From: an uncultured Prevotella sp.
GTDB lineage: Bacteria; Bacteroidota; Bacteroidia; Bacteroidales; Bacteroidaceae
NCBI GenBank assembly: GCA_902476365.1
Contig: CABSCZ010000005.1
Span: 7,009-71,008, forward strand
Reading direction: 5' to 3'
DNA: 64,000 nt
Below are positions 52,135 to 53,813 of this stretch, in pieces (position 1 is the first letter of the stretch; every line of letters starts with the position of its first letter). The notes below the pieces were generated by a model. It was not told the origin of the DNA. It searched no databases and saw nothing but the letters and a program-made list of their open reading frames with translations. A program made the position numbers and the translations under genes.

Positions 52135-52968
52135 ATGATGACATTAAGATTAACAGAACAACCTTCCAAGTATCGGCACTTGGAAAAAAAATCAGTAGAT
52201 GAACTGGTAACATTAATCAATCAAGAAGATCAAACTGTTCCTTTAGCTATTCAAAAGGTCCTTCCAGACCTTGCAAGGCTGATTGAAGCTATTGAAGAGA
52301 AACTAAAGAATGGGGGCAGAATGTTCTATTGCGGATGTGGAACTGGAGGACATTTAGCAGTTGATGATGTCCTGGAGTTACCAAACACTTATGGCATTGA
52401 TCCGGAAATGATACAATGCGTTCTTGCTGGGGGAGTAGAGAACTTGGTCCTTGATTTAGAAGAAAAGGAAGACGACACAGAAGAAGGATGGCAAACCTTG
52501 AAAAGTAAGCATATCTCCGAGCAGGATATAGTAGTTGGAATTTCGGCGAGTGGAACTACTCCGTATGTATTGGCCACACTCAAAAAATGCAAAGAAAATG
52601 GTATTACAACTGGATCGTTTGTCAATAATCCTGATGCCCCAATATCTAAATATAGCGACTATCCTGTAGAAGTCATTACAGGACCAGAGTTCGTCACAGG
52701 TAGCACCCGTATGAAAGCTGGGACTTCCCAGAAACTCATCTGTGACATGATCTCTACTACCTTGATGATCAGACTCGGTCGCGTGGAAGATAATATGATG
52801 GTCAATGCAAATTTGATTAATGACAAAGTAATTGATCGCTCTGTCAGGATGCTTATGGAGCGCAATCCAGAACTATCAGACTATGACTACTGTAAGAAAA
52901 TGATAGAGAAATGTGGCAGTGTAAAAAAGACTGAAGCATACTTGAAACAACAACAAATTATCAAATGA
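52135..52968 (+). CDS. murQ: MurQ-like SIS-domain sugar-phosphate etherase (second, divergent copy)
   Basis: It aligns with the first copy at 11069..11884 (GISASGTTPYV, GPEFVTGSTRMKAGTSQK). The glycine-rich motif differs: FYCGCGTGGHLAVDDVLELPNTYG versus [24 protein letters not shown]. Confidence 0.7.
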   Translation: MMTLRLTEQPSKYRHLEKKSVDELVTLINQEDQTVPLAIQKVLPDLARLIEAIEEKLKNGGRMFYCGCGTGGHLAVDDVLELPNTYGIDPEMIQCVLAGGVENLVLDLEEKEDDTEEGWQTLKSKHISEQDIVVGISASGTTPYVLATLKKCKENGITTGSFVNNPDAPISKYSDYPVEVITGPEFVTGSTRMKAGTSQKLICDMISTTLMIRLGRVEDNMMVNANLINDKVIDRSVRMLMERNPELSDYDYCKKMIEKCGSVKKTEAYLKQQQIIK

Positions 52969-53813
52969 AACTAATTGCAGACAGCGGATCGACAAAGACA
53001 GATTGGGCATGTTTACAGCATGACAAAACCTGCATTCGTTTTACGAGTGCAGGTTATAATCCCAATTATATCACGGCAGAGTACATGTCAAAAGATATCC
53101 AAAATTCCTTGCCTCTTTGCATGAATAAGGCAGAAATAACAGAGATATATTTCTATGGAGCAGGTGTAACAGAATTACAATTTCCATTTGTTCGCTCTGT
53201 GCTCCATGGCATTTTTCCAAATGCAAGCACTATCTTTGTTGAAATGGACTTATTGGCAAGTGCCCGTGCTTTGTTAGGTGACCGTCCTGGATTTGCAGCA
53301 ATTCTTGGTACTGGAACAAACAGTTGTCTCTATGATGGTCAAAAAATAGCTCTCAACATTGATTCTTTAGGATTTATTTTGGGGGATGAAGGGAGTGGAG
53401 CCTATATGGGCAAACAATTAATGATTGATTATATCCGACATAACATGCCCAATGATGTCTGGAAAATGGTTGCTGATTATGTTAAGATGAGTGGTGATGA
53501 AATCATTGATCAGATATATACGAAGCCGTATCCAAATAGATGGTGTGCTCATTTTAGCAAGTTTATAGGAGATCATCTTCAGGATGAAAATCCCTATTTT
53601 AGAAATCTTGTTGAAAGATCGTTTTATGATCTTTTTGAAAAGATTATCACGCATTATCCAAACTATCAAGCCTATGAGTTCAATTGTGTAGGATCAATTG
53701 CCTATTGTTTTCATGACTACTTGGAAAAGGTGGTTTCTTCTTTTGGCATGAAAATGGGAAAGATTATAAGATATCCTATTGATGGTTTAGTAGACTACCA
53801 CAGTATTCATTAA
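52965..53813 (+). CDS. murK: BadF/BadG/BcrA/BcrD-type MurNAc/GlcNAc kinase-like (second copy)
   Basis: Motifs MKLIADSGSTKTDW and ILGTGTNSC are present. It is collinear with the first copy at 11896..12741. The start overlaps the murQ2 stop (ATGA). Confidence 0.7.
   Translation: MKLIADSGSTKTDWACLQHDKTCIRFTSAGYNPNYITAEYMSKDIQNSLPLCMNKAEITEIYFYGAGVTELQFPFVRSVLHGIFPNASTIFVEMDLLASARALLGDRPGFAAILGTGTNSCLYDGQKIALNIDSLGFILGDEGSGAYMGKQLMIDYIRHNMPNDVWKMVADYVKMSGDEIIDQIYTKPYPNRWCAHFSKFIGDHLQDENPYFRNLVERSFYDLFEKIITHYPNYQAYEFNCVGSIAYCFHDYLEKVVSSFGMKMGKIIRYPIDGLVDYHSIH

Follow-up and report, generated by a model that had tools for sequence, protein, structure and literature searches.

A second, divergent murQ-murK pair within a low-GC polysaccharide utilization locus of an uncultured Prevotella sp.

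In Bacillus subtilis, the cluster murQ-murR-murP-amiE-nagZ-namZ recovers N-acetylmuramic acid (MurNAc) and brings together an amidase, NagZ, NamZ and MurQ. MurQ itself reportedly needs only a leaving group at C3 of an open-chain 2-acetamido aldose 6-phosphate, as Hadi and colleagues are said to have concluded in 2008 and 2013. For MurK, the MurNAc 6-kinase of Tannerella forsythia, the structural account (PMC10465942) describes a complex with MurNAc in which Ser133 water-bridges the lactyl carboxylate and Pro134 lies beneath the lactyl group, so that the small, uncharged patch Ser133-Pro134-Leu135 makes room for the lactyl ether. The same source gives Arg-Ala at MurK positions 133-134 for the paralogue K1058. 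Here we describe a second murQ-murK pair, Q2 and K2, in the genome of an uncultured Prevotella sp. (assembly GCA_902476365.1, contig CABSCZ010000005.1, positions 7,009 to 71,008; this whole stretch of 64,000 nucleotides is referred to as the window). The pair lies in a polysaccharide utilization locus (PUL). With roughly even confidence, we read Q2 and K2 as carrying out the cytoplasmic steps of a horizontally acquired PUL whose function is to scavenge a MurNAc-type amino sugar from outside the cell, most likely from peptidoglycan fragments of other bacteria.

The pair, which had been proposed from a sequence-only reading of the window, is genuine. Both open reading frames (ORFs) are where that reading placed them, and both match curated models and solved structures. 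Q2 (52135..52968, plus strand, 277 aa) is a MurQ-family SIS etherase of a divergent Bacteroidota subfamily, and K2 (52965..53813, plus strand, 282 aa) is a BadF/BadG-type sugar kinase related to T. forsythia MurK. The start of K2 and the stop of Q2 share 4 nt. The comparator pair consists of Q1 (11069..11887, minus strand, 272 aa), a MurQ with the canonical signature, and K1 (11896..12741, minus strand), which is orthologous to the characterised MurK of T. forsythia and has Ser-Pro-Leu in its lactyl pocket. The mechanically called murQ1 ORF is longer (11069-12049, minus strand); it begins with TTG and shares about 150 nt with murK1. The likely true start is the ATG at 11887 (MAFVN...), with which the N-termini of homologues align. 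The gene order is as first described, murK then murQ on the minus strand in copy 1 and murQ then murK in copy 2. The motifs that the sequence-only reading had singled out are likewise present, i.e., the canonical motif and AVENAEDD in copy 1, and GCGTGGHLAVDDVLE and LDLEEKEDD in copy 2. The two etherases, Q2 and Q1, share 49% identity, and the two kinases, K2 and K1, 40%. A recent tandem or segmental duplication is ruled out by these identities, by a GC contrast of 0.38 against 0.53 between the two loci and by the separate clade of Q2 in the tree, both discussed below.

Q2 is a member of the MurQ family. It scores 307 bits against PRK05441, the NCBIfam MurQ subfamily model (cut-off 168; Q1 scores 360 bits), and 264 bits against PRK12570 (cut-off 255). 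Its matches to the solved MurQ structures 4LZJ/4M0D, 1NRI and 4S12 have E-values of 1e-53 to 1e-56, at about 40% identity over the shared SIS fold. Alignment to 4LZJ places Glu89, Glu120 and Lys239 of Haemophilus influenzae MurQ at Glu81, Glu112 and Lys231 of Q2, and the columns of all three are invariant in 252 aligned homologues. The catalytic Glu is Glu83 in Escherichia coli MurQ and Glu89 in the H. influenzae enzyme, where it reportedly acts as the single acid/base, and Glu120 and Lys239 are reported to be ligands of the C5 hydroxyl and the phosphate (work of Hadi and colleagues, 2013). This numbering coincides exactly with Glu, Glu and Lys in the alignment. As in MurQ systems, the Q2 gene is adjacent to and translationally coupled to a gene for a MurK-type kinase. 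Unlike Q2, typical MurQ lacks the clade signature described next and is encoded in recycling operons with AmpG, MurT or MurP, not in a SusC/SusD-type PUL.

Around its catalytic residues Q2 departs from the canonical sequence. The G-A-G-T-S-G-R loop reads G-C-G-T-G-G-H, and the L-D-A-S-E-x-P-P-T context of the catalytic Glu reads D-D-V-L-E-L-P-N-T. The altered SIS motif noted at the outset is thus real, but the catalytic Glu is fully kept, as are its partners Glu120 and Lys239. Nor are the His of GGH and the Asp of VDD (His73 and Asp77) the key changes that they were first taken for, as they occur in only 4 of the 120 best Q2 homologues in the database (68-98% identity). What all 120 share is the pattern G[CA]G[ST]GG[RKH]L.V.D.[LIV]E.PNTYG together with LE[EA].ED, where canonical MurQ has PPTFG and VEGAED. 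We surveyed this signature in the 252-homologue alignment, which includes diverse representatives at 50% identity, and in 70 genomic loci. In H. influenzae numbering it comprises S79G, S88 to L/I/V, P92 to N/T/V, G118 mostly to E, and A145S, corresponding to Gly71, Leu80, Asn84, Glu110 and Ser137 of Q2. Written as motifs, TSG becomes TGG, the Ser before the catalytic Glu becomes L/I/V, PPT becomes PNT or PTT, VEGAED becomes LEE.ED, and GIAASG becomes GISASG. The signature is kept down to about 55% identity in Bacteroidales, Sphingobacteriales and Chitinophagales. A neighbour-joining tree unites all 45 sequences with the signature in a single clade that contains no others; its sister groups are Bacteroidota MurQ with the canonical signature, Q1 included.

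The position of these changes can be judged from the glucokinase regulatory protein (GKRP), which descends from MurQ and binds sugar phosphates in the former active site (bioRxiv 10.64898/2026.05.08.723886). Ligand contacts of GKRP include Gly107, Thr109, Ser110, Glu153, Ser179 and Ser183 (PMC4109836). In our HMMER alignment, Cys68, Thr70 and Gly71 of Q2 pair with Gly107, Thr109 and Ser110, Glu112 pairs with Glu153, and Ser137 pairs with Ser179; two signature positions, Gly71 and Ser137, therefore match ligand-contacting residues of GKRP. Since Gly71 aligns with Ser110 and Ser137 with Ser179, Q2 is predicted to have lost one Ser of the ligand shell and gained another, with a hydrophobic residue placed just ahead of the catalytic Glu. 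By homology, the changed residues map to the active site; a position outside it is part of what the sequence-only reading had named as counting against its proposal. That reading had also offered plain divergence as an explanation. This is unlikely, because the signature is fixed and monophyletic, two of its positions align with ligand residues of GKRP, and the partner kinase has changed in step.

K2 shares with T. forsythia MurK (Tanf_08380) membership in the BadF/BadG family, the catalytic Asp95, the sugar-binding Asn119 and Asp141, and the Gly67 backbone position; Asp95, Asn119 and Asp141 are kept in 28 of 28 K2-type kinases. Against 8OQW, a T. forsythia chain that carries the MurK residues, K2 scores 214 bits, and K1 scores 334 bits against the MurK-residue chain. 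An orthologous relationship of K2 to K1058 was considered and rejected: K2 scores only 184 bits against the 8OQK chain, which we take to be K1058, and its pocket reads Asp-Ser, not Arg-Ala. K2 is an orthologue of neither MurK nor K1058. The MurK-residue chain was recognised by N32, F34, F35, A66-I69, T94-M96 and S133-P134-L135, which are the residues published for MurK (PMC10465942).

The pocket for the lactyl group sets K2 apart. The Ser-Pro-Leu patch, present in K1, is replaced by Asp-Ser-Leu in K2, to be compared with Ser133-Pro134-Leu135 in MurK and with Arg-Ala at the first two positions in K1058 (PMC10465942). Of the kinases encoded beside Q2-type etherases, 28 of 28 have Asp or Glu at position 133, and 118 of 120 K2 homologues from the database have Asp there. 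In kinases beside etherases with the canonical signature it is Ser, Asn or Arg. The N-acetyl pocket differs as well in the close K2 clade, with NPNY for the NPFF of MurK, and Thr94 of MurK is Met in K2. We also noted natural fusions of MurQ to a BadF/BadG-type kinase or to NamZ (P0149, P0126, P0130, P0131, P0135 and P0157), all of which carry the canonical MurQ signature. At MurK position 133, the kinase parts of P0126, P0130, P0131 and P0135 carry Pro instead of an acid; a motif search did not find the position-133 motif in P0149.

Immediately upstream of Q2 are two secreted GH20 beta-N-acetylhexosaminidases, GH20a (48381..50225, plus strand) and GH20b (50232..52052, plus strand), which are 44% identical to each other. 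GH20b scores 508 bits against BT0459 (PDB 6Q63) and has the catalytic pair D330-E331 in GGDE (residues 328-331). GH20a has the ordinary Arg of the -1 subsite; GH20b has Ser167 in its place, at the position of the Arg in the LD-x-x-R-H motif of BT0459 (6Q63) and 7CBN. In the Vibrio campbellii enzyme this residue, Arg274 (equivalent to SpHex Arg162), hydrogen-bonds the C3 and C4 hydroxyls of the -1 N-acetylglucosamine (GlcNAc) (PMC8098473). The catalytic Asp lies 163 residues further along the chain in GH20b as well as in the V. campbellii enzyme. GH20b is a candidate exo-acting enzyme for N-acetylhexosamine (HexNAc) substituted at O3. The Arg-less lineage is also found in L001, L003, L005, L006, L008, L010, L020, L047 and L083 among the loci compared, in L020 without a second GH20. 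Every locus with two GH20 genes encodes one enzyme with the Arg and another with Ser or Leu. Such a pairing is expected for a glycan in which plain HexNAc alternates with O3-substituted HexNAc, a description that would fit the peptidoglycan backbone, and the Arg-less lineage may represent a GH20-type exo-muramidase.

CerL (47007..48368, plus strand) precedes the GH20 pair. It is a protein of 453 aa with a signal peptide. Its AlphaFold model (pLDDT 91.8, from a 42-sequence alignment) matched only neutral ceramidases in a Foldseek search, the human 4WGK and the Pseudomonas aeruginosa 2ZWS, with E-values of about 1e-25, a TM score of 0.68 and 14-15% identity. The likeness is to the fold of the ceramidase catalytic domain; neutral ceramidases have 630-670 aa, and CerL covers only part of them. 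The Pfam neutral-ceramidase score of 29.6 is under the gathering cut-off of 32.1. Invariant columns of the CerL alignment include His113, His116, His118, His210, Glu373, Tyr414 and Tyr416. Invariant His, Glu and Tyr are consistent with a Zn site, which in neutral ceramidases is made of two His, a Glu and a Tyr, and CerL is presumed to be a secreted metallo-amidase of the Zn amidohydrolase type. Because the locus is built for glycan utilization and has no lipid genes, CerL more probably acts on an amide linked to a sugar or a peptide than on a lipid; the amide of MurNAc-L-Ala is a reasonable guess. A PUL for glycosphingolipids or ceramides, which CerL, the C45-type protein described below and GH20 enzymes might have brought to mind, is unsupported, given that CerL is much shorter than the ceramidases, is only 14-15% identical to them and has no lipid genes around it.

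These genes belong to a twelve-gene block on the plus strand that extends from an extracytoplasmic function (ECF) sigma factor to a C1-like peptidase and is recognisable as a PUL by adjacent SusC and SusD genes, two GH20 genes and an ECF sigma/FecR pair. The sigma factor (39924..40505, plus strand), presumably the regulator of the PUL, is followed by a FecR-type anti-sigma factor (40565..41566, plus strand). Next are a SusC-like TonB-dependent transporter with an STN domain (41755..45102, plus strand), the 99%-identical L085 orthologue of which is annotated STN/CarboxypepD_reg/Plug, and a SusD-like outer-membrane glycan-binding lipoprotein (45115..46935, plus strand). Downstream of K2, a major facilitator superfamily (MFS) sugar transporter of the glucose/galactose (GluP/NagP-like) subfamily (53830..55050, plus strand) is presumed to import amino sugars across the inner membrane. 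A secreted C45/AAT-like N-terminal nucleophile (Ntn) hydrolase (55047..56255, plus strand) is a candidate amidase or peptidase because its signal peptide ends just ahead of Cys-Thr-Ser. The last gene of the low-GC PUL encodes a C1-like peptidase of the aminopeptidase C type with an N-terminal hydrophobic segment (56234..57682, plus strand). No chitinase or GH18 gene is present among the annotated genes of the PUL in the window.

The gene content could also be read in terms of plain GlcNAc. Q2 would then be no etherase and would act on GlcNAc-6-phosphate as a dehydratase or epimerase, much as the related SIS enzyme NagS dehydrates GlcNAc-6-phosphate (PMC12680351), and K2 would be a GlcNAc kinase in a PUL for chitin or for HexNAc of host glycans. 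The acid of K2 at the MurK Ser133 position is indeed reminiscent of the bulky Glu found in kinases for glucose and GlcNAc (PMC10465942), JGI calls some K2 homologues glucosamine kinase, and an ECF sigma/anti-sigma pair with two GH20 genes is also what host-glycan PULs contain. Q2, however, is nested within MurQ, is 49% identical to Q1 and has every catalytic residue of MurQ; the missing Arg of GH20b implies that the sugar is not plain GlcNAc but carries a modification at O3 or O4; and a chitin PUL would have to do without a chitinase or GH18 gene. We consider this explanation very improbable.

The Q2/K2 locus is horizontally acquired. GC is 0.51-0.56 around copy 1, 0.38-0.42 in the PUL and 0.36-0.42 from about 40 kb on; it steps down sharply, from about 0.52 to about 0.39, where the PUL begins (39.8 kb), and stays low through the end of the window. 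We saw no tRNA or integrase gene at this boundary. The foreign base composition, together with the conserved catalytic residues, would suit isofunctional xenologues, i.e., an ordinary MurNAc-6-phosphate etherase and MurNAc kinase that arrived with a foreign PUL and differ in motif only through the history of their lineage. The 18 Chitinophagaceae loci in which a lone Q2-type gene lies beside topoisomerase IV genes have a housekeeping look that agrees with this, and one identical Q2-type protein is also encoded near AmiA-like and SLT genes. Lineage history alone does not readily account for a signature that sits at ligand-shell positions, is fixed across three orders to about 55% identity and co-varies with the charge of the kinase pocket and with the Arg-less GH20; neutral drift would not keep those positions constant. 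We regard isofunctional xenologues as unlikely, though less so than the GlcNAc explanation above.

The GC jump is not an assembly chimera, as the low-GC PUL lies beside the high-GC recycling cluster in the independent assemblies L002, L085, L086 and L087. In the window, K1 and Q1 are preceded by an AmpG-like muropeptide permease (12745-14091, minus strand) and a family-2 glycosyltransferase (14095-15567, minus strand), and further upstream on the same strand by genes for PAP2, a GDPD phosphodiesterase, DUF218, SusD and SusC (15679..23722, minus strand). The copy-1 cluster resembles the T. forsythia recycling operon Tanf_08345-08385, and by that analogy its AmpG, MurK and MurQ would recycle the wall of the cell itself. 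In an uncultured rumen Prevotella sp., RUG143 (L002), the PUL block is 93.5% identical at the nucleotide level and begins with an equal GC step. Both there and in JGI/Logan contigs with a 98%-identical Q2, the PUL is followed on its 3′ side by a SusC gene on the same strand, or by a SusC stump and then PAP2, the glycosyltransferase, AmpG, murK and murQ. In L085 an IS21 element splits this SusC gene; in L086 and L002 only the stump is left. Because the PUL and the recycling cluster adjoin on the same strand in these related assemblies, an inversion of about 34 kb (from about 23.8 to about 57.7 kb) appears to have parted two formerly adjacent loci in the window. In Chitinophaga (L031), a SusC-SusD-DUF218-phosphodiesterase module stands ahead of Q2, as it does ahead of the copy-1 cluster here, and the DUF218 proteins of these two modules share 36% identity.

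Directly after the last PUL gene of the window is a 97-nt inverted repeat (57782-57878 and 58220-58316), 91% complementary, with 341 nt between its arms. It may be a miniature inverted-repeat transposable element or a remnant of an insertion sequence at a rearrangement breakpoint. A sulfatase ORF beyond it (58484-59620, minus strand) matches only profile positions 94-300 and is probably truncated at its N-terminus. The region 60055-63952 (minus strand) encodes a full sulfatase and a SusD protein that resemble part of another PUL.

The neighbourhood of Q2 recurs in other genomes. Unbiased clustering of the ORFs within 8 kb of Q2 in 70 loci shows that the gene most often linked to it is CerL (34 loci), followed by the MFS transporter (32), K2 (29), SusC (27), SusD (24), a DegT-type aminotransferase with a twin-arginine signal (21), GH20 (15), and a DeoR regulator and a GDSL esterase (8 each). 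The core of SusC/SusD, CerL, two GH20 enzymes, Q2, K2 and MFS transporter is found again in Prevotella sp. KH2C16, Hallella multisaccharivorax, Dysgonomonadaceae, Paludibacter and others. Q2 usually lies upstream of K2, so the inverted gene order to which the sequence-only reading drew attention is a strong tendency of the clade, but it is no rule: in Proteiniphilum the kinase is upstream, in the order kinase, MFS transporter, etherase. Genes for DegT/DnrJ-type pyridoxal phosphate-dependent aminotransferases, which the window does not have, lie beside Q2 in L007, L011-L015, L018, L020, L024, L025, L032 and L051, in L057, L059-L062, L071-L073 and L076, and, beyond the 70 loci, in L081. Their products are presumably periplasmic because the cluster representative, from L013, has the twin-arginine signal. 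Some of these loci also encode a Gfo/Idh/MocA oxidoreductase, a 3-keto-disaccharide hydrolase, GH78, GH92 or GHL10.

From these data we infer the following pathway, in which every substrate and enzymatic step is proposed. SusC and SusD would take in peptidoglycan fragments. In the periplasm, CerL, aided by the C45 and C1 peptidases, would remove the amide-linked peptide, GH20a would cleave ordinary terminal GlcNAc, and the Arg-less GH20b would cleave the 3-O-substituted HexNAc. The NagP/GluP-like transporter would bring in the monosaccharide, to which K2 would add a phosphate at O6. Q2 would then eliminate the C3 substituent and hydrate the product to GlcNAc-6-phosphate, with Glu81 as acid/base and Glu112 and Lys231 serving ring opening and phosphate binding. 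Two features of gene arrangement point to peptidoglycan, namely that the PUL adjoins the AmpG-MurK-MurQ locus in relatives and that the SusC-SusD-DUF218-phosphodiesterase module is shared. The proposed logic is common to the T. forsythia scavenging operon Tanf_08345-08385 and the B. subtilis cluster, i.e., an extracytoplasmic amidase, an exo-acting GlcNAc-ase and an exo-acting MurNAc-ase followed by import, and, at the cytoplasmic end, 6-phosphorylation and ether cleavage. The parts themselves are not homologous. The window has a ceramidase-fold amidase where the known systems have AmiE or Amidase_2/3, an Arg-less GH20 where they have NamZ (GH171), and a NagP-like MFS transporter where they have MurT, MurP or AmpG, and it adds uptake by SusC/SusD and control by an ECF sigma/anti-sigma pair. 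Our literature search found no paper that describes the Q2 subfamily or paralogue, or a peptidoglycan PUL of this design, and databases label all members MurNAc-6-phosphate etherase or N-acetylglucosamine kinase.

Several observations weigh against MurNAc and peptidoglycan. Q2 does not reach the TIGR00274 equivalog model (256 bits; cut-off 302 bits), but neither does Q1 (296). By homology with MurK, the invariant Asp or Glu of K2 would be next to the lactyl carboxylate site, which is electrostatically awkward for MurNAc; a dual GlcNAc/MurNAc kinase activity would reconcile this acid with the peptidoglycan model. Q2 is likewise more acidic near the active site (LEE.ED) and has lost the loop Ser that aligns with GKRP Ser110. 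Many Q2 loci outside the window include genes without an evident function in peptidoglycan use, namely DegT (21 of 70), GH92, GH78, GHL10 or a 3-keto-disaccharide hydrolase, and no NamZ, Amidase_2/3, lysozyme family or other recognised peptidoglycan hydrolase was seen among the annotated neighbours in Q2 loci. The literature search returned no biochemical data for any member of the subfamily. Taken together, the missing classical hydrolase, the acid of K2, the acidity of Q2 and its neighbours in other loci leave real room for another 3-substituted HexNAc.

Q2 and K2 would in that case perform the same chemistry on a sugar other than free MurNAc, with the group at C3 eliminated from the 6-phosphate. 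Candidates are MurNAc amide-linked to L-Ala or a peptide, N-glycolyl- or iso-muramic acid, a 3-amino HexNAc, or a 3-O-glycosyl-GlcNAc such as Gal-beta1,3-, Fuc-alpha1,3- or uronyl-beta1,3-GlcNAc. This is possible but less probable than MurNAc. It would explain the clade-wide ligand-shell changes in both enzymes (Gly71 and Ser137, opposite Ser110 and Ser179 of GKRP, and the hydrophobic residue before the catalytic Glu), including an acid in the kinase at a position that is Ser, Asn, Arg or Pro where MurQ is canonical. The canonical pair is also retained in the same genome, which argues against redundancy. The neighbours elsewhere, namely DegT, Gfo/Idh/MocA, 3-keto-disaccharide hydrolase, GH92 and GH78, point to chemistry that is C3-centred or unrelated to peptidoglycan, and the MurQ mechanism, with its reported need for a C3 leaving group alone, would accommodate another substituent. 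None of this singles out a specific candidate, however. Q2 and K2 keep every catalytic residue of MurQ and MurK and most of the binding residues, NagP/GluP-type transporters usually carry monosaccharides, which disfavours disaccharides and peptide-bearing substrates, and the PUL in the window needs only two beta-HexNAc-ases and amidases, a set that peptidoglycan fits well. Scavenging of a MurNAc-type sugar from peptidoglycan thus remains the reading that we prefer.

MurQ and MurK have been regarded as enzymes with one function, peptidoglycan recycling, and in databases every member goes by the name MurNAc-6-phosphate etherase. The Q2/K2 subfamily is large, conserved and unstudied in Bacteroidota, with matched ligand-shell changes in both enzymes. 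On the less probable reading set out above, Q2/K2, the Arg-less GH20b and CerL would form an undescribed Bacteroidota pathway in which MurQ-type beta-elimination has been re-tuned to 3-substituted HexNAc other than free MurNAc; if this is true, Q2 would represent a phospho-sugar lyase of new specificity and GH20b a GH20 enzyme of new specificity. Should another sugar be the target, the chemistry of MurQ would extend past muramic acid. Should it be peptidoglycan, the locus would be a PUL dedicated to peptidoglycan harvest that includes an exo-muramidase of the GH20 type and an amidase of a new muramoyl amidase class. This would matter for the release of NOD ligands and for necromass turnover in the rumen, the gut, digesters and soil. 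Either way, an annotation rule follows, in which the subfamily is recognised by [ST]GG, [LIV]E and P[NTV]T in the etherase and by Asp or Glu at MurK position 133 in the kinase.

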